Source of the DNA: an uncultured Thermoleophilia bacterium
Lineage (GTDB): Bacteria > Actinomycetota > Thermoleophilia > Gaiellales > Gaiellaceae
Length of the DNA: 64,000 bases
NCBI GenBank assembly: GCA_963792455.1
Contig: CAWBWA010000005.1
Location: 10,010 to 74,009 of the forward strand
Reading direction: 5' to 3'
In this document: positions 7,140 through 51,272 of the stretch, one piece after another
Layout of the letters: every line of letters starts with the position of its first letter
Numbering within the stretch: the stretch's first letter is position 1
The notes under the pieces: model-generated
Told to the model about the DNA's origin: nothing
Databases searched by the model: none
The model's input: the letters and a program-made list of their open reading frames with translations, nothing else
Program-made: the position numbers and the translations under genes

Positions 7140-9114
7140 CTACCGCCCGCAGGCCGGATTCTCCGGGTCGTCGACCGCGGCCCGCGCGACATCCAGCGGC
7201 CCGCCCGCCGAGAAACGGCTGCCGCGCGGATCGAGCGTGTAGGCGGCATTGAACGCGAAGTAGGCGCTGCACTGGTTGCCCAGGGCGAGCTGGCGGAAGA
7301 GGCCGAGCTCCCACCACGTGTCCGGGTTCTCCGGCTGCAGTCGCGTCGCCTGTTCGTAGGAACGCTCTCGGCCGCGCGCCGGTCACCGCGAGTCGTATGC
7401 GATCGCTGCACGGGCGAACAGCGGCTCGGGGGAGAGCGGGTTCAGGCTCTGAGCGCGGCGGGCGGAGACTGCGGCGGCCTTCAGGTCACGCGAGTCGATC
7501 TGCCGGTAGGCGGCGTCGACCGAGCGGGTCGCGAGCGCCGGCGCGACCAGCACCCAGATCGCCGCTCCCGCGCCGAGCACGGCGCCGGCCGAGACGAGCC
7601 CTCTCGAGCGCGCGACCGCGGCCGGGCGGCCGGCGCCGAGCAGCGCCGCCGAGACGAGTGCGGTCGGCGCGGCGACGGCGAGGAAGTCGAGGTCGTAGTC
7701 GACGAGCGCGTGCAGGCCGAACGCGACGGGTAGCGCGAGCAGCCCGACGGCTGCGGCACGCTCGCCCGGCTCGAGCCGCCCGACCGTGGCCCGGAGCCCG
7801 AGCCCGAGCGCGGCCACGAACGCGAGCCCGAGGACGAGTCCCGGCAGGCCCGTCTCGGAGAGCAGCTGGAGCGGCACGCTGTGCGGCTCGGTCACGTTCC
7901 GCGCGTCGTCGCGAACCCGCTTGCGCGCGATCTCGAACGTGCGGGCACCCGTGCCCCCGGCCGGATTGGCGCGGAAGATCTGCCACGACTCTCCCCACCA
8001 GGCGGTGCGGTTGTTCGTCTCGAGGCTGCCGAAGCGGCCCGGGTCGTTCACGACCGCTCCCGAGCCTTCGATCTGGTCTGCCGCCCAGGTGAGCGGATTG
8101 CCGACGCTGAGAACGAGCGCGGCCAGCCCGAGTGCGCCGACGACCGCGACCGTGCCGACGAGGCCGCGAACGACCTCGCGCCGTCGGCCCGCGACGAGGC
8201 GCTCGACCGGGACGAGCGCCACGAGCGCGAGGACGACCGCGGCGCCGATCACGATCCCCAGGCCGAGCAGGGCGCCGTCGGAGACACGATCCGCACGCGC
8301 ACCGCCGTCCTCGACGAGGGCCGGGCGCGTGAACGCCCACCCGGCCACGAGGATCGCAGGGCCGGTCGCAAGCAGCGCCTGGAGCGACGCCTCGACCCTC
8401 CGCTCGCCGAGCCAGAGCGAGAGAGCGACAACCGCGAGCCCGGCGAGGAGACCGGCGCGGGACTGGGTCAGGAGGATCACGAGCGTGGCCGCATAGAGGA
8501 GCAGCGCGCCCGAGGGGCGGCCGAAGCGGTCGCGCACCGAGGCGACCAGCCAGAGGCCGAGGCCGAGCGCAGCGCCCGCGAGGAGGGCGAGCGCGTTCCA
8601 GTAGCCGACCGCTCCCTTCAGTCGCGCGACGCGACCCGCATCGTCCGGGCCGAGCGACGGGATCGCCTTGCCGAGGAGCGCCCAGAGCGAGGACAGCGCC
8701 GAGCAGGGCGGCGAGGAGCAGCGCGAGCGAGCGCACGGGCCGCCGCCCGGGCAGGCAGGCGGCCGCGAGGCCGACGACGCCGAAGGCGAGGAGGACGATT
8801 CCCTTGGCGAGCGCATCCCAGGAGCGGTCGCCCGCGATCGACCACCACACGGTCAGCCCGGTCCACGCGACGAGCGCGATCGCGGCCGCTCCGGCAACGG
8901 TGCCCGCGCGATCGAGGCGGGGGAGGGTCACGAGGCCGCGCGACCACCCGACGACCAGCAGGGCAGCCACGATCACGGCAGCCGTCCCGAGCGATGCCGT
9001 TGCCCCCGTGCCAGACGCGCCGCCTGCGAAGAGCGCCCAGCCCAGAAGGACGGCGGCGGCCACAAGCACGGCACCGGCGAGACCTGATCGCGTCGCGCGT
9101 GGGGCCGCGTCCAT
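7140..9114 (-). CDS. O-antigen ligase-like (Wzy_C) polytopic membrane protein with C-terminal TPR (frameshifted)
   Basis: RLKGAVGYWNAL, LLTQSRAG, R..WW.ES...GGTGARTF, PHSVPLQLLSETGLPG, HALVDYD; pieces in ORFs 7486-9159 and 7383-8816. Confidence 0.85.
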
Positions 9115-9256
9115 GGCGGGCCACGGTACCACCACGACGACCGGTTCCCGTGACACCAAGACTTACAATTCGTTTACCCTGCACACACCGCCGCCTCAAT
9201 GGCAGCCGAGAGACTTGCCACACTCCCCGGCACCCCCTTCTCCGCCCGCCAGCACC

Positions 9257-9877
9257 GTGCATCGACCTCCCACATCTCATCGCGCCCTGCGGCTCGGCCT
9301 CGCGCTCGTTTCCGTGGTGCTGCTCTCGGCCCTCGCGGGCGGCCCGGCCTTCGCGAAGAGCGCGTCGTGCGCGGACCAGGTGGTCGCCGACTGGTACGAC
9401 GACGGCCGCGTCGGCAAGATCTACCCGCTCGAGTGCTACCGCCAGGCGATCAAGATCCTGCCGCCCGACGTCCTCGACTACTCGAACGCGAAGGAGGAGA
9501 TCGGCCGCGCACTCGCCTTCGCGAAGCAGGGGAAGCCCGACCCGGGCGGCGAGGATCCGACGCCTCCGGCGACCACCTCGACCGGGACGACGAAGACGGA
9601 GACGACCAAGACGAGCACGACCAAGACGAGCACGACCAAGACCGAGCACGACCAAGACGAGCACGACCAAGACCGACACGATCGAGACCGACACGACCGA
9701 ACGAGCACGACCGACACGAGCACGACCGACACCTCGGGCCCGTCGTCGGTACCGGTGCCGCTGCTCGTGCTCGGAGGGCTCGCGGTGCTGCTCCTCGCGG
9801 CCGGCTCGGCCGGCTATCTCCGCCGCCGGATGGACGGCGACGGCGACGGCGACGGCACACCGCCGACCACGACGTAG
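9257..9877 (+). CDS. Secreted/surface protein: signal peptide, two-Cys domain, Thr-rich linker, C-terminal TM+RRR
   Basis: LGLALVSVVLLSALAGGPAFA; CADQVVADWYDDG..YPLECY; (TTKTS)n; SSVPVPLLVLGGLAVLLLAAGSAGYLRRR. Confidence 0.8.
   Translation: MHRPPTSHRALRLGLALVSVVLLSALAGGPAFAKSASCADQVVADWYDDGRVGKIYPLECYRQAIKILPPDVLDYSNAKEEIGRALAFAKQGKPDPGGEDPTPPATTSTGTTKTETTKTSTTKTSTTKTEHDQDEHDQDRHDRDRHDRTSTTDTSTTDTSGPSSVPVPLLVLGGLAVLLLAAGSAGYLRRRMDGDGDGDGTPPTTT
9589..9735 (+). repeat. 15-bp coding tandem repeat (about 9 imperfect units)
   Basis: acgagcacgaccaag / acgagcacgaccgac units. Confidence 0.85.
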
Positions 9878-10081: not shown

Positions 10082-12864
10082 ATGGCAACCACGAAGGCGA
10101 CACCAGAGTCAGTGACGCGACCGCGACCGCAGCGAAGGACGACTACGTCAACGCGGTGATCGACGAGCGTGCGAGCGTCACCCCGCAGAGGTTCTTCACG
10201 ATCCCCGGCCGCGACCCGTTCGACGAGATCGAGTGGGAATCGCGCCACGCCCTGATCCCCGGCAAGGACGGCCCGGCCTTCGATCAGAAGGACGTCGAGT
10301 TTCCCCGCTTCTGGTCGCAGACGGCGACGAACATCGTCGCGCAGAAGTACTTCCGCGGCCGCATGAGCTCACCCGAGCGCGAGCGCTCGGTGAAGCAGAT
10401 GATCGGCCGGGTCGTCGACACGATCGGCGGCTGGGGCCGGCAGGGGTCGTACTTCGCGACCGACGAGGAGGCCGAGACGTTCGAGGCCGAGCTGAAGGCG
10501 ATCCTCGTCAACCAGATCGCCTCGTTCAACTCGCCCGTCTGGTTCAACGTCGGCTTCGAGGAGAAGCCGCAGTGCTCCGCCTGCTTCATCCTCTCGATCG
10601 ACGACTCGATGGACTCGATCCTCGACTGGATCCGCCGCGAGGGCGTCATCTTCCGCGGTGGCTCGGGCTCGGGCATCAACCTGTCGCGCCTCCGCTCGTC
10701 GCAGGAGCAGCTCTCGAAGGGCGGCTACGCCTCCGGCCCCGTCTCGTTCATGCGCGGCGCCGACGCCTCGGCGGGCACGATCAAGTCGGGCGGCAAGACG
10801 CGCCGGGCCGCGAAGATGGTCGTGCTCGACATCGACCATCCGGACGTCGACGAGTTCATCTGGTGCAAGGCGAAGGAGGAGCGCAAGGCGCGCGTGCTCG
10901 AGCAGGCGGGCTACGACATGTCGCTCGACTCGCCCGACTGGGGCTCGATCCAGTACCAGAACGCGAACAACTCGGTGCGCGTCACGGACGCCTTCATGGA
11001 GTCGGTCGTCGAGGGCAAGGAGTGGAACCTGACCGCACGCACCGACGGCTCCGTCGTCCGCACGGTCGACGCGCGGGAGCTCCTGAAGGACATCGCCGAG
11101 GCCTCGTGGCAGTGCGCCGACCCGGGCGTGCAGTACGACACGACGATCAACCAGTGGCACACGAGCCCGAACACGGGGCGGATCAACGCGTCGAACCCGT
11201 GCTCGGAGTACATGCACGTCGACGACTCGGCCTGCAACCTCTCGTCGCTGAACCTGATGAAGTTCCGCAAGGAGGACGGCGAGTTCGACGTGCCGATGTT
11301 CGAGCACGCGGTCGACGTGATGTTCCTCGCGCAGGAGATCATCGTGGGTTACTCGTCGTACCCGACGCCGGAGATCGGCCGCAACGCGCTCAAGTTCCGC
11401 CAGCTCGGCCTCGGCTATGCCAACCTCGGCGCCCTGCTGATGGCCCGTGGCCTCCCGTACGACTCCGACGAGGGCCGCGCCTACGCAGCGGCGATCACCG
11501 CGATCATGACGGGGCGCGGCTACCGCAAGTCGGCCGAGATCGCGAAGCGGATGGGCCCGCACGCAGGCTACGCGGAGAACGCCGCCGCGATGCTCGGCGT
11601 GATCTCGAAGCACCGCGCGGCGGTCGGCAACATCCAGCACACCGACTCGGTGCCGGCGGACATGCTGTCGGCGGCCCGCAAGGCGTGGGACGACGCGCTC
11701 GACCTGGGCGAGGTCGCGGGCTTCCGCAACGCGCAGGCGACGGTGCTCGCGCCGACCGGGACGATCAGCTTCATGATGGACTGCGACACGACCGGCGTCG
11801 AGCCCGACTTCTCGCTCGTCAAGTCGAAGAAGCTCGTCGGCGGCGGCGAGCTGACGATCGTCAACAAGACGGTGCCGATGGCGCTCGGCGAGCTCGGCTA
11901 TGCGACCCGCGAGGTCGAGGAGATCGTGGCCTACATCGACGAGCGGGGCAGCGTGATCGGCGCACCGCACCTGAAGCACGAGCACTACCCGGTGTTCGAC
12001 TGCGCCATCGGCGAGCGCGCGATCCACTACATGGGTCACGTGAAGATGATGGGCGCGGTGCAGCCGTTCATCTCGGGCGCGATCTCGAAGACGGTCAACC
12101 TGCCCGAGCAGACGTCGGTCGACGAGGTGGCGCAGCTGCTGATCGAGGCCTGGCAGCTCGGCGTCAAGGCGATCGCGATCTACCGCGACAACTGCAAGGT
12201 GGCGCAGCCGCTCTCGGGCTCGAAGGACACGTCCGAGGAAGGGCGGATCGCGCAGATCCATGCACTCGGCGGCGTCGTCGCGGCACCGAAGCGGCGCCGG
12301 CTGCCGGACGACCGCACCGAGGTCGGCCGCAAGTTCAAGGTCGGCGAGTACGAGGGGTACATCCACGTCGGCCTCTTCGAGGACGGCACGCCGGGCGACA
12401 TCTTCGTGGACATCGCGAAGGAGGGCACGACGCTCGCCGGCCTGATGAACTCGTTCATGATCTCGGTCTCGCTCGGCCTCCAGTACGGGGTGCCGCTCGA
12501 GGTGTACGTCTCGAAGTTCAGCCACATGCGCTTCGAGCCGAGCGGGATGACGAACGACGCCGACATCCGGATCGCGAAGTCGATCGTCGACTACATCTTC
12601 CGCTGGATGGGCAAGAAGTTCCTCACCGCCGACCAGCAGGAGGAGGCCGGGATCCTGACGCCCGAGGTGAAGGCGCGGCTCGCCGCGGCCTACGCCGCCG
12701 GCGAGGCGCAGGCTCCGTCGCACGAGGCCCCGCCGCCGGGCCAGACGGCGCTCTTCAACAGCTGGGAGGATGCGGTCGAGTGCTCGAAGTGCGGCGGCCG
12801 CATGGTGCGAACCGGCAGCTGCTACACGTGCCGCGACTGCGGCACGAACACCGGCTGCAGCTGA
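10082..12864 (+). CDS. nrdJ: Vitamin B12-dependent (class II) ribonucleotide reductase
   Basis: FNSPVWFN, QCSACFI, NPCSE, ACNL, APTGT, ISKTVN, TSCPD-like domain, C-terminal CxxC..CxxC ribbon. Main ORF 10156-12864; ATG 10082 with RBS is out of frame by an indel. Confidence 0.96.
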
Positions 12865-13052: not shown

Positions 13053-16029
13053 TCACGGATCACTGCGCGGCGGTCGGATGACGACGACGCGATCGACGAC
13101 GAACTCACCATCCTGCACGCGAAGGATCGTGATCGGCGACTCGAGGAGATCGCCCTGCGCGTCCCAGCCGATGTCCCCGAGGATCCCCTTCGTCACGACG
13201 GTGCGGCGTGACCTCGTCGAGGACCGACCTCGCGTGTCCCGTCGGAGCGCGCGATGGCGTCGAGCAGGATCTCGGCGGCCTGCGCGCCGTACGCCGCTGC
13301 GCAGGTCGGGGCCGGGGTCGCCCCCGTTCGCGGCGGCGAAGCCGCGGAGGAACTGCCGTCCCCTCGGCGGGAGCCGGTCGTTCGGGATGCCGTAGTTCGT
13401 GACGTACAGCCCCTCTGCCGCGGCGCCGGGGAGCTTCTCGAGCTCGTCGAGCGGGAACCCGTCGGGCGCGCTGATCGCGACGTCGGGGCCGAGCGCCGCC
13501 CGAAGCCCGCGCACGAGCGCCGCCGACCCCGGGCTCAGGACATCGACGATCGCAATGGACTCGGGCCTGCTCCGGGCGACACGGCGGACGAGCGCCGCGA
13601 CGGACTCGTCCTCGGGGTCGAACCGGGCGCTCCCTACGACCGCGACCCCTCGGAGCTTCGCGTGCGCACGCAGGTCCCGGATGTAGCCGGCGCCGTACTC
13701 GCCCGAATCGAGCACGAAGAGCCGGTCGTGGCCCAGCTCCTTCGCAAGCTCCACCTGCGCGGGGCCCTGGAGGCGATTGAGCGCGGCGAGCCGGAAGAAG
13801 CTCCGCGTCCCGGACGGGTAGAGATCGTCGTCTTCGGTCAGCCGCTCGATCGTGTTCGACGGGCTGATCATCACGAGCGGTCCGCCCGGGGCCTGGTTCG
13901 TGATCGGGATCTGCAGGTACGAGCAGAACGACTGGTACGAGCCGATGACGCCGACGACGCGCTCGTTGCGCGAGAACGCCTTTGCGTTCGTGCCGCAGCG
14001 GAAGAAGTCCTCCGCGCCGGCCTGCGCCGTCGAGGAGTCGCACGCCTGGAAGCCGACCGAGAACCCGCCGGCCTCGAAGCCGCGCTGCTCGAGAACGAGA
14101 CGGATGCCACCGACCATGGACTCGCGCTATGGCGCGGCTGTCGCCCTGGAGCGGGAGGCTCGACACGAGCAGGAGGTCCGGTCTCCCGACACCGCCCGAC
14201 TGGACGTCGCCGCAGACCGCCCGCGGGAGAGCCGCCTCCCGCGACGGCGGCGGTAGCGCCGTCACCCAGACCTCGCCCTCGCCCGCGTCGACGTCGCGGG
14301 GCGACGCGTCGGTGGCGATGCGCTCGGTCTCGCTCGTCCGCGGGTCGATGCGATGGATCTCGTCGGTGATCTCGTTCGTCGCCCACACCGCTCCTTCGCC
14401 GTAGGCGAGACCGGCGACCCACTTCTCGAGCGGGACGGCTCGCGCTGCGAGCCGCCGGCCGGTGTCGACGCGCCACACGTTGCCGCTCTCGGGATCGGTC
14501 GCCCACACCGCGCCTCCGCCGATCGCGATGTCCACGAGGAACCCTGCGTCGAGCGTCAGTCGTCGCGCGACCGCGTTCGTGGCGCTGTCGATCTCGGTGA
14601 CGGTGTTGCCCTCGGTGACCCAGACGTCGCCGTCGCCCGCTGCGATGTTCTCGGCCCGGACCTTCCTGACCCGGGCGACGATCCGGTTCGATCGCGGGTC
14701 GATGCGCGAGACGGTGAGATCGGGATTGATCACCCAGACGGCATCCGGCGCGACGGCGATGTGCTGTCGGCTGCTCCCCGGGAACACGTTCGCCGGCCCG
14801 CCGATCCGCGCGGGCGGGAGCTCGATCGTCTCGACGAGACGACCCGACTCGGGGTCGACGCGGAACACGCTGCTCGGGATGACGCCGCCGGCCGACGTCG
14901 TGCTGCCGATCCAGACCCCCCCGGCGCCCACCGCGATGTCGGTCGGCGTCGAGGAGGTGCTGAAGGTCCGGACGACGGCTCGCGTCTCCGGGTCGATCTG
15001 CGACACGGTCCTGTCGTCGGCGTCGAGCACCCAGACGCCCCCCTCGCCCACGCTGACGGCGGACGGCGCAGTGCCGAGCGGAACGCTCGCGACCACGTCG
15101 CCAGAGACGGGATCGAGTGCGCGCACGCCCGCCTCCTCGACCACGCGTGTCGCCGCGAGTGGCCTGGTAGGCGGCCGCTCCGACCGCGACAGCGAGCAGG
15201 AGCACGCCGACCGCCACGATCGTCCGCGGCTGCCGCCACAGCGCTCGCGACCCTGTTCGCAGCCTCGCAGGAGGCTCAGGCGCGGCGAGCGTCGGGTCCT
15301 GGTCGAGGATCTGACGCTCGAGCCGCCGCAGGTTCTCGCTCGGCTCGAGGCCGAGCTCCTCCGCGAGCGCGCGGCGTCCCTCCTGGTAGGTCTGCAACGC
15401 CTCCGCCTGCCGACCCGAGCGGTAGAGGGCGAGCATCAGCTGCCCCCGGGGCCGTTCGCGCAGAGGATGCTCGACGACGAGCGCCTCGAGCTCGACGACG
15501 AGCTCCTGGTGGCGTCCGAGCTCGAGATCGGCCTCGATCCGCTCCTCCTGGGCGGCGAGGCGGAGCTCGTCGAGGCGCGCGATCTCGGCCTGAGCGAAGT
15601 CCGCGTATCGGAACTCCGGCAGCGCGGGGCCGCGCCAGAGCGCGAGCGCCTGCCGCAGCTGCTCCGACGGCGAGCTCGGGCTCACCGCGCGCGCGAGCGC
15701 GCCGTGCGTCCTCGAGCGAGTCCCGAAAGATGTCTGCGTCGAGCTCGCCGCTCTCGAGGCGGAGGCGGTAGCCGTGGCCATGCGACTCGAGCGCTCCACC
15801 GGCCGAGCCCAGCGTCGCTCGCAGCCGTGAGACGAGCGCCTGCAGCGTCTTCAGCGCGGACGCGGGAGGCGTCTCGCCCCAGAGCCCGTCGATGAGCCTG
15901 TCCGCAGACACGACTCTCGTTCGCGTGGATCAGCAGGATCGCGAGGAGCTCGCGCTGCTTTCCGCCGGGGATCTCGATGCGCTCGCCCTCGACGACGACT
16001 TCGAGAGGGCCGAGGATCTTCGCTTTCAT
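13053..16029 (-). CDS. Transmembrane SARP-family regulator: wHTH-BTAD-TM-beta-propeller-LivJ-type solute-binding domain (about 990 aa, several frameshifts)
   Basis: MKAKILGPLEV..GGKQRELLAILL; ADRLIDGLWGETPP..VSRLR; LALWRGP..HPLRER..MLALYRSGRQAEAL..ELGLEPS; TM IVAVGVLLLAVAVGAAAY; GEGGVWV/GAGGVWI/GGGAVWA blades; VSSLPLQG, VVGVIGSYQS, MISPSNT. Confidence 0.88.
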
Positions 16030-16047
16030 CGCGCTCCTCGCTCGTGG

Positions 16048-16086
16048 TGCAGCCGACTGTGGCTGATCTGCAGCCGCAGTGCAACC
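16048..16086 (+). promoter_or_regulatory. SARP/OmpR-type heptamer direct repeats
   Basis: tgcagcc 16048, tgcagcc 16069, tgcaacc 16080, degenerate tgtggct 16058. Confidence 0.65.
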
Positions 16087-16147
16087 AGCTCGCAGCACGG
16101 TGCTCCCGACCCGACCGCACGAGGCGGTCGACGACGGAAGGAGAATC

Positions 16148-16695
16148 ATGAAGCGGTTCGCGTATCTCGTGGCTCTGGTGGCGTCGTTCACGCTCTTCAC
16201 CGGCACCACCGCCGCGATCGCCGGAACCCACCCCGACGACCGTGCGACACACGGTCCGGGCGCGGTCACGCTCGAGCAGCAGAGTGGCGTCGTTCGTCCC
16301 GACGACCGGGCGACCCACGGGCCGGGCGCAGTCACCGTCTCGGCGGTCGACCGACGTCGTTCGTCCCGACGACCGAGCGACCCACGGGCCGGGCGCGGTC
16401 GACGCTCGAGCAGCAGAGCGACGCCGTTCGTCCCGACGACCGAGCGACCCACGGGCCGGGCGCGATCGCGCTCGAGCAGGTGACTCGGGCCGGGCAGGTT
16501 CCCGTCATCGCCCCGGGCGGATCGGAGACAGCGCGCGTCGACGGCTTCGACTGGCTCGACGCCGGCATCGGCGCCGCTGCCGCGCTCGGTCTCGGCCTGA
16601 TCTTCGTGGGCGGCGTGGTGCTCGCGCTTCGCCGAACCCCTTCACCCAACGGCTTGCCGTCTCTTTCCCCGGGTGGGACCGGAGGCACGAGCTGA
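16148..16695 (+). CDS. Secreted repeat protein (4 x 22 aa, core PDDRATHGPGA) with C-terminal FDWLDAGIG-TM-RR tail; two +1 indels
   Basis: RBS aaggag, signal peptide MKRFAYLVALVASFTLFTGTTAAIA; the repeats continue across ORFs 16079, 16242 and 15892; about 181 aa after correction. Confidence 0.82.
16229..16480 (+). repeat. 66-bp coding tandem repeat, 4 copies
   Basis: cccgacgaccg.gcgac.cacgg.ccgggcgc at 16232, 16298, 16365, 16432. Confidence 0.92.
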
Positions 16696-50573: not shown

Positions 50574-51272
50574 ATGAGACCGGCCGACGATGTGCGGGCG
50601 CAGGTGGACCGGGCGCTCGAGCTGTGCGACGACGACCCCGAGCAGGCACTCGCCATCTTCGACGACATCGACCGTCGCTACGGGGAGTCAGTCGATCCCG
50701 CGACGCGACGCGAGGTGGCACGGGCGCTCAACTGCAAGGCAACGGGGCTCTGGGAATACTGGTGGGGTAATCCCGAGCTGCGTCTCGCCATCTTCGACGA
50801 CATCGACCGTCGCTACGGAAAGTCAGTCGATCCCGCGACGCGACGCGAGGTCGCGCAGGCGCTGACGGGCAAGGGGGCGCTCCTCGGGAGCTACGAGGTC
50901 CAGCGATACGAGGAGAGCCTGGCTGCCTTCGACGAGGCGGTGAGTCGCTTCCAGGACGAGACCGATCCCGGCCTCGTGGCTGAAGTCGCCTTCGCGCGAC
51001 TCGGGCGGGCGGAGGCCTTCGGCGAACTCGGGCGCCACGAGGAAGCGGTGGAGGCCACCGACGAGGTGATCGAGCGGTACGACGGCGAGGCCGCTCTCGG
51101 GCTCCGGGAGTTGGTGGCCGACGCCCGCGTCAGGCGTGGTTGGTTCCTCCATGAGCTCGGGCGCGACGACGAGGCGATCGCGGCTGCCGACCACGCGACG
51201 GGCGAGGCCGACTGCGTCTGTGCCGGCAGCTCGTCTCGGGCGAGCTCGCCCCGATCCCCGGGGCATGGGTGA
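50574..51272 (+). CDS. TPR-like helical repeat protein (3' end probably frameshifted)
   Basis: Repeated A..FD....R....P......VA.AL..KG units. Confidence 0.8.
   Translation: MRPADDVRAQVDRALELCDDDPEQALAIFDDIDRRYGESVDPATRREVARALNCKATGLWEYWWGNPELRLAIFDDIDRRYGKSVDPATRREVAQALTGKGALLGSYEVQRYEESLAAFDEAVSRFQDETDPGLVAEVAFARLGRAEAFGELGRHEEAVEATDEVIERYDGEAALGLRELVADARVRRGWFLHELGRDDEAIAAADHATGEADCVCAGSSSRASSPRSPGHG
50649..50855 (+). repeat. Near-identical ~70-bp direct repeat, 135-bp period
   Basis: ctcgccatcttcgacgacatcgaccgtcgctacgg..agtcagtcgatcccgcgacgcgacgcgaggt at 50649 and 50784. Confidence 0.9.

Follow-up and report, generated by a model that had tools for sequence, protein, structure and literature searches.

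A predicted one-component membrane SARP receptor and a divergent gene for a small exported repeat protein in an uncultured Gaiellaceae bacterium

The window analysed here is a stretch of 64,000 nucleotides from an uncultured member of the Gaiellaceae (Thermoleophilia; assembly GCA_963792455.1, contig CAWBWA010000005.1, positions 10,010 to 74,009). Between positions 13053 and 16695 it carries two divergent genes: one for a receptor in which the head of a Streptomyces antibiotic regulatory protein (SARP) is joined through a transmembrane (TM) helix to a beta-propeller and a LivJ-type binding domain, and one for a small exported repeat protein, hereafter the cargo. This layout is real and conserved. 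The best explanation, to which a probability of just under 0.6 is given, is that the membrane SARP binds a small, probably amino-acid-like ligand and drives the displayed repeat protein as its output, not as its ligand. A first-pass annotation, made from the sequence alone, had proposed instead that the repeat peptide may be the ligand.

The features of the receptor gene, in window coordinates, are the following.

13053..16029, minus strand: receptor gene, about 989 amino acids allowing for seven extra bases, with SARP head, TM helix, propeller and LivJ-type PBP6 domain in this order (reading frames, Pfam, alignment to an orthologue)
15300..16029, minus strand: cytoplasmic SARP head, made of an OmpR-type winged helix-turn-helix (wHTH) and a BTAD (Pfam PF00486, PF03704)
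15167..15220, minus strand: single TM helix after basic residues (hydropathy, conservation in orthologues)
14250..15141, minus strand: seven-bladed YVTN-like beta-propeller, outside (AlphaFold2 (AF2) model of orthologue L017, 28 strands; Foldseek match to 1l0q, E 1e-16)
13056..14230, minus strand: LivJ/LivK-type periplasmic-binding (Venus flytrap) domain with conserved Cys residues and pocket Ser/Thr (PF13458, PDB matches)

In a six-frame reading, the receptor gene runs from 16029 to 13053 and crosses seven frame changes, its pieces matching Trans_reg_C, BTAD (E 2e-43), propeller families and Peripla_BP_6 (E 2e-14) in one frame after another. When its DNA is aligned to that of L017, an intact orthologue (989 amino acids; 2528 of 2977 bases identical), +1 insertions appear at about 15911, 15668, 15144, 14123 and 13298, with two further net bases gained in 13238-13208. 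The indels had been flagged as needing polish, and short-read contigs, which are those of relatives and not reads of the window organism, indeed lack the extra base at four or more of the receptor sites (15914, 15667, 14121/3, 13301/4) and at one of two sites in the cargo gene. Among the sequencing runs searched for this stretch none contained half of it (best share 0.14), and one RNA run gave only short pieces of at most 168 nt with 22 differences from the window. Intact orthologues such as L009, L010 and L017 have a single frame of 989-1006 amino acids; P0271-P0276, also single-frame, show 70-82% identity, and many proteins of about 990 amino acids in this identity range exist with automatic domain names only. 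A 739-nt contig of a relative spans the junction between propeller and PBP6. The prediction of one gene of about 990 amino acids fusing all four parts is borne out, and the domains are very probably not separate genes. The genome itself (G000) is an assembly of 3.58 Mb in 12 contigs, 82% complete.

The head of an intact orthologue matches PF00486 (E 6e-12) and PF03704 (E 4e-48), and a hydrophobic segment follows the BTAD in every intact orthologue (Kyte-Doolittle scan). The protein is thus a SARP, by its N-terminal OmpR-type wHTH and BTAD, and also a transmembrane transcription regulator (TTR), by its DNA-binding domain and TM helix in a single chain. The described SARP classes (small, medium, large and SARP-LAL, with no mention of 'membrane'; PMC10972967) do not accommodate the receptor, whose C-terminus consists of TM helix, propeller and PBP6 and is neither absent nor an NB-ARC, NB-ARC plus TPR or LAL part. 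The supplement of Demey et al. includes 213 TTRs with a BTAD, so that the combination of SARP and TM helix has already been listed computationally (PMC10269533). In the main text of that paper neither SARP nor propeller is mentioned, the only Peripla_BP_6 TTR of its table is an HTH_3-NB-ARC protein, and 32 of the 214 BTAD rows include one WD40, one PQQ_2 and no substrate-binding protein (SBP).

The ectodomain of L017 (694 amino acids, 115-row alignment) was modelled by AF2 with a mean pLDDT of 95 and a pTM of 0.94, as a seven-bladed propeller followed by a type I binding domain. Its top PDB matches are the Leu/Ile/Val binders LivK/LivJ, binders of aromatic acids and the mGluR/GABA-B receptors, and the propeller matches 1l0q; the propeller piece used as a query among longer proteins gave no match, this search being a weak one. 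Conserved cysteines fit an outside location. Ser406 occurs in 96% of the aligned rows and Thr/Ser432 in 98%; we take these to be the amino-acid pocket positions of LivJ. The domain is alike in fold and pocket Ser/Thr to LivJ/LivK and to Venus flytrap receptors (3td9, 4q6b, 2liv, mGluR), but LivJ and LivK serve a permease, whereas in the window receptor the domain follows a propeller in the same chain as a transcription factor; it thus has the type I fold of a LivJ-type SBP without being a stand-alone exported protein of an ABC operon, and no permease gene adjoins the receptor locus. It is homologous to an ABC binding protein encoded in the same genome upstream of Liv-type permease genes, and the Cys linker is common to both.

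The cargo gene is divergent from the receptor gene at 118 bp from ATG to ATG, as had been noted at first, and has these features.

16148..16695, plus strand: small exported repeat protein, about 181 amino acids allowing for two extra bases (ATG at 16148, 118 bp from the receptor ATG)
16148..16222, plus strand: predicted Sec signal peptide ending in A-x-A (sequence; the pattern is kept in the cargo alignment)
16229..16464, plus strand: four [HR]PDDRATHGPGA repeats in units of 22 amino acids, predicted to be disordered (AF2 model of an orthologue)
16543..16635, plus strand: GFDWxDAGIG motif, TM helix and basic residues, a family-wide C-terminal anchor (81 tails; confident AF2 helix)

Perfect copies of the repeat start at 16229, 16295, 16362 and 16429, a spacing of 66/67/67 nt from which the two extra bases are deduced. 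The description of the product as made almost entirely of four copies of one peptide stands for the four copies and not for the extent, since the 12-mers account for 48 of about 181 residues and are followed by the anchor (GFDWLDAGIG, TM helix and RR in the window), which the first-pass annotation does not mention. In 81 tails the anchor residues are conserved at F 91%, W 93%, A 87% and G 91%, and in the AF2 model of an orthologous cargo only two end helices form, the repeats having a pLDDT of about 50. The cargo matches neither Pfam nor NCBIfam; its family comprises at least 1,324 clusters at 90%, and of the 120 listed none carries a Pfam domain or is named as anything but 'hypothetical'. A search of the ESM Atlas returned unnamed clusters only, with a recognition value below the mark. 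The tail has the general shape of PEP-CTERM signals (motif, TM helix, basic cluster), with only two matches in its own genome and only small proteins seen; the anchor has no NCBIfam match at E 1.

Other cargo genes were noted as well. Chains at L076, L153, L155, L174 and L217 combine repeat modules from different families, three RPDD-type cargo genes, two of them near-duplicates, lie inside 10 kb in another genome (G228:C5:281063-291258; L142, L166, L167), and an orphan gene with RPDDR/PNDR repeats and the same tail type occurs in the window genome with no SARP adjoining (L002, G000:C11:888320-888673).

Three elements were recognised between the two genes.

16048..16086, plus strand: four heptamer boxes, TGCAGCC, TGTGGCT, TGCAGCC and TGCAACC, with spacing 10/11/11, the predicted SARP operator (shuffles, conservation)
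16096..16101, plus strand: putative -10 element CAnnnT, 9 bp past the last box (equal spacing in L009 and L010)
16113..16129, plus strand: conserved leader hairpin just 5' of the Shine-Dalgarno sequence at 16136-16143 (cargo leaders against random windows)

The boxes start at 16048, 16058, 16069 and 16080 and together match the consensus at 24 of 28 positions, a score reached in none of 3000 shuffles, and the four-box operator is kept in orthologues and across 12 aligned promoters. Heptamers with an 11-bp period had been reported between the genes: four boxes are present, but the first interval is 10. A scan for sigma-70 promoters and terminators found no site. Across the intergenic regions L011-L124 the box sequence varies, as judged by eye, with the recognition helix of the head (TGCAACC, TTACC, TTTAGC, CTGAAAC and TGACAGC types), behind which a SARP DNA-recognition code may possibly lie. 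Operator conservation and this change of box with helix support the proposal that the receptor activates the cargo gene through the heptamers. The leader hairpin, 17 nt long and 17-25 nt upstream of the start codon, is common to several cargo types with G-U-type variants, occurs in 25 of 46 cargo leaders against 1.7% of random windows, and is identical in the window, L096 and L100; it is likely to be a 5' stabilising stem-loop.

The association of the two genes was examined from both sides. The phylum-wide (301-genome) tally and the tally of 401 family genomes include unpublished genomes, and L308, L318, L336 and L344 were excluded from all locus counts and underpin none of the claims. For the SARP-centred survey, 110 genomes of the genus were searched with L009 and the top matches taken (123 of the best 150 matches fetched, 393 more unlisted), a set therefore biased to this architecture. 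A divergent signal-peptide gene was found beside 44/60 membrane and 23/51 cytoplasmic SARPs, a gene with the tail beside 24/60 and 10/51, and RPDD repeats beside 11/60 and 8/51, respectively; this tally includes seven TM-less propeller SARPs. Being common to membrane and cytoplasmic SARPs, the divergent small secreted gene is a general habit of SARPs here. RPDD cargo lies beside 11 of 17 SARPs with TM helix, propeller and PBP6.

The cargo-centred survey took 90 of the best loci, minus six training loci; 47 of the remaining 84 have at least two P[DN][DN][RHQ] motifs. Within the order the cargo profile matches 145 of 401 genomes, and phylum-wide 4 of 301. Twenty-five of the 47 RPDD-type loci face a SARP and 22 are without a divergent SARP. 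The 25 SARPs comprise 5 TM-propeller, 8 AAA16, 10 USP-like, 1 cyclase-AAA and 1 unclassified protein, i.e. 19 cytoplasmic against 5 membrane forms. With only six SARP genes in the window's own genome, 25/47 amounts to a strong enrichment of cargo beside SARPs, and not beside ectodomains. The divergent pairing of receptor and repeat gene is non-random. Near-identical repeats occur opposite cytoplasmic SARPs of the AAA (L182, L237) and USP-like (L151, L165, L248) types, and some loci of the family that face cytoplasmic SARPs share the four-box operator and an identical leader hairpin with the window pair. The RPDD motif is found with several unrelated head clades and operators, and repeat types vary between receptor clades; at L227, a receptor 72% identical to L017 faces repeats without the HGPG half. 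No conserved protease, transporter or other gene lies downstream of the cargo in the window and 21 further loci. A closer-alignment scan of 80 GTDB loci recovered for the most part TM-PBP6 orthologues already known, together with additional tail genes from Solirubrobacterales and Thermoleophilales.

Among related loci, L238 carries a pair with 89% identity to L017 under the record title 'proteobacterium', which is probably a matter of labelling. An own-genome paralogue of 617 amino acids (L001, G000:C11:1101502-1103833; SARP-TM-propeller) faces a secreted protein with another repeat (ALxRSxALN...YGLG), no TM tail and TTACC-type boxes.

Comparison of heads and sensors indicates that these parts have been recombined. 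Head trees place RPDD-TM-PBP6, RPDD-AAA16 and GYKS-SBP5 loci in one clade (SH 96), and RPDD-TM and RPDD-AAA heads fall in one clade of 21 rows (SH-aLRT 95) in which TM and AAA members share the operator. A single clade of TM-less propeller heads was rejected by the approximately unbiased (AU) test (p 0.00016). Between L054 and L059, head and cargo are 90% and 89% identical and the sensor 35%. Conversely, among 91 long ectodomain matches (from the best 150 representatives) 68 carry a SARP head and most others start with cyclase (58% ectodomain identity) or Ser/Thr kinase (54-61%) domains. In loci where 500-1200 nt upstream were examined, a tail gene is present at 4 of 11 with a SARP head and at none of 7 with a cyclase head. 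The four nearest non-orthologous SARP ectodomains (50-53% identity; 401 family genomes) have as divergent neighbour the gene of a TolB-like protein, of a cupin or of a kinase, or none that could be detected, and none of the four has an RPDD gene. The evolving unit thus appears to be head, operator and small secreted gene, onto which sensors (propeller with PBP6, SBP5 or BMP; AAA-TPR; USP-like) are swapped; as far as these comparisons reach, cargo would be independent of sensor, and ectodomain of cargo.

Where the propeller stands without a fused binding domain, an SBP gene tends to adjoin it: among propeller-only SARPs whose downstream sequence extends for at least 1 kb, this holds for 26 of 33, against 0 of 30 cytoplasmic controls, 16 AAA16 loci being too short for the count. 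Fifteen of these neighbours are BMP and nine SBP5 genes in convergent orientation, and two are SBP5 genes on the same strand. Most likely, then, the propeller is a docking site for an SBP, which is part of the same chain in the window receptor and a separate protein in the others. BMPs with a signal peptide accompany all seven scored TM receptors and signal-less BMPs all six TM-less ones. TM-less SARP-propeller proteins (L053, L059, L060, L064, L066, L072 and others), each with a convergent signal-less BMP-family gene, have propellers 80-94% alike and heads 52-65% alike between clades, and each pair would apparently form a cytoplasmic propeller-SBP sensor. Propeller and SBP together are likely to be a sensor, probably for a small molecule, and the recruitment of three SBP families to the propeller suggests that ligand diversity matters.

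On the preferred reading, the single-pass receptor, whose fusion and fold are established, has its SARP head inside and its propeller and LivJ-type domain outside. Ligand would close the flytrap, and propeller and TM helix would relay this closure and so cluster the heads. In keeping with operator conservation and known SARP behaviour, the heads would occupy the four heptamers, which overlap the -35 region, and bring RNA polymerase to the promoter of the cargo gene. The repeat protein would be exported and anchored by its FDW-TM tail, and its disordered array, displayed at the surface or shed, would be meant for partners other than its own receptor.

Certain observations weigh against this reading. 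The exact core PDDRATHGPG was found at 7 distinct loci, every one of them beside a TM-propeller-PBP6 receptor, and these loci are all kin. In the ALxRSxALN family, also a set of kin, 20 of 29 loci have a divergent SARP, and all of these SARPs bear a propeller or TM helix, none being of the AAA or USP-like type. By the AU test a single clade is not rejected for AAA16 heads (p 0.082) and is rejected only at the margin for TM-PBP6 heads (p 0.036). About two clades supply the SBP-neighbour signal, and all counts rest on related genomes.

The small gene beside a SARP recalls AfsR-afsS of Streptomyces (PMC6988585), in which AfsR activates the adjacent afsS through direct repeats at its promoter (PMC10832544, PMC10972967, PMC6988585). 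AfsS has two to five short repeats, three of 12 amino acids in S. coelicolor, and these repeats bind AfsR (PMC10832544). The two systems are alike in that a SARP adjoins the gene of a small repeat protein, activation being presumed in the present case; they differ in that AfsR is cytoplasmic, with ATPase and TPR parts and kinase control, whereas the window receptor has a TM helix and an outside propeller-PBP6, and in that AfsS acts inside on AfsR, whereas the cargo has a signal peptide and a TM anchor. The likeness is one of logic, not of sequence comparison. With ToxR/CadC-type TTRs the receptor shares a one-component layout with OmpR-type wHTH inside, one TM helix and a sensor outside. In RRNPP quorum sensing (Rap/Phr, PlcR/PapR), a small signal-peptide gene adjoins a regulator with TPR-like repeats; in the window the cargo is TM-anchored and multi-repeat, no one-to-one pairing of peptide and receptor was found, and the receptor has an outside sensor.

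One alternative, tentative and on balance unlikely, is that the SARP-induced cargo tunes its own regulator, through TM or juxtamembrane contact or as a re-imported peptide on the TPR-like BTAD. MgrB- and CpxP-like proteins give a precedent for the former, and AfsS- or RRNPP-like peptides for the latter. Such feedback would explain why cargo tracks head and operator and not sensor, it agrees with the FDW-TM anchor being the most conserved part, and it has a parallel in the binding of AfsS to AfsR (Kd 4.7 uM; PMC10832544). However, the repeats, lying between signal peptide and TM helix, would be outside while the head is inside, and both the spread of the RPDD motif over unrelated heads and operators and the 22 genes without a divergent SARP speak against it.

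More speculative, and a little less probable, is a kinase-free peptide language of Gaiellales, in which dozens of interchangeable cores (RPDDR, ALxRSxALN, GYKS, DLRSPD and others), shed from FDW-anchored precursors or displayed on them, would be read by one-component SARP receptors. Propeller-SBP ectodomains would do so outside the cell, and cytoplasmic SARPs once the cores have been imported, so that every divergon would be a loop of autoinduction or kin recognition.

The original proposal for the window pair, that the exported repeat, shed or displayed, may be the ligand of its own receptor in a kinase-free circuit of autoinduction or kin recognition, is quite unlikely; the repeat would have to bind propeller or flytrap and so close a positive loop. 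The restriction of the exact core and of the ALN family, the 11 of 17 receptors with RPDD cargo, the variation of repeat type by receptor clade, as specificity codes would show, and the AfsS precedent all speak for it, but an exclusive pairing of peptide and receptor was not found across genomes, the exact core being clade-restricted but confounded by kinship. The family faces cytoplasmic SARPs more often, near-identical repeats included, the L227 repeats lack half of the core, the nearest ectodomains have unrelated neighbours and no cargo, and no protease or transporter gene is conserved downstream in 22 loci. Moreover, the closest solved relatives of the fold bind small molecules, and the cyclase and kinase heads on like ectodomains, together with an SBP as the genomic partner of the propeller, speak against a peptide ligand. 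Co-folding of the L017 ectodomain with cargo residues 25-110 scored 0.00 in two runs in which the controls were not folded, and is neither for nor against binding.

It is very unlikely that the flytrap has ceased to bind metabolites and that propeller and SBP sense an envelope state or protein partner, the cargo being an envelope-stress surface protein: the targets of other SARP divergons do include lipoproteins, TolB-like proteins and small folded proteins that are secreted, but the pocket Ser/Thr is conserved and three SBP families have been recruited. A decayed pseudogene pair, or separate domain genes, would fit nine frameshifts in 3.6 kb but is extremely improbable, as every change is a single-base gain, five of the nine extra bases are missing in relatives' contigs, orthologues are intact and further genes of the assembly are also frameshifted.

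The large open reading frame at 10156-12864, which converges on the receptor gene, is presumably a class II ribonucleotide reductase, by sequence recognition only. Orthologous pairs sit in other gene contexts, and the receptor-repeat unit therefore looks mobile. Elsewhere in the window, an open reading frame at 8804-9877 has a Thr/Lys-rich 15-nt tandem array (9587-9727), a C-terminal TM helix and a weak, sub-threshold match to the MprA tail, and a 135-nt tandem repeat of 2.2 copies lies at 50639-50935.

Literature searches, which did not cover subscription papers, found neither the receptor layout nor the propeller-SBP module nor the cargo family described, in agreement with the initial statement that no characterised system with this layout is known. 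The locus represents a modular class, apparently undescribed, of membrane SARP receptors of one-component design that probably drive an unnamed family of displayed repeat proteins, AfsR/AfsS-like in logic, in the Gaiellales, which are abundant but barely cultured soil bacteria. Its design is modular, with SARP, cyclase or kinase output, TM helix, propeller, and SBP fused or next door, and beside the receptors it reveals a family of small displayed repeat proteins. Since every receptor comes with a predicted operator and target, ligand screens and reporters are straightforward, and biosensors that need no kinase could possibly be built on the swappable SBP sensor. Should the repeats prove to be signals, they would constitute a new peptide-signalling system, an exported counterpart of AfsS.

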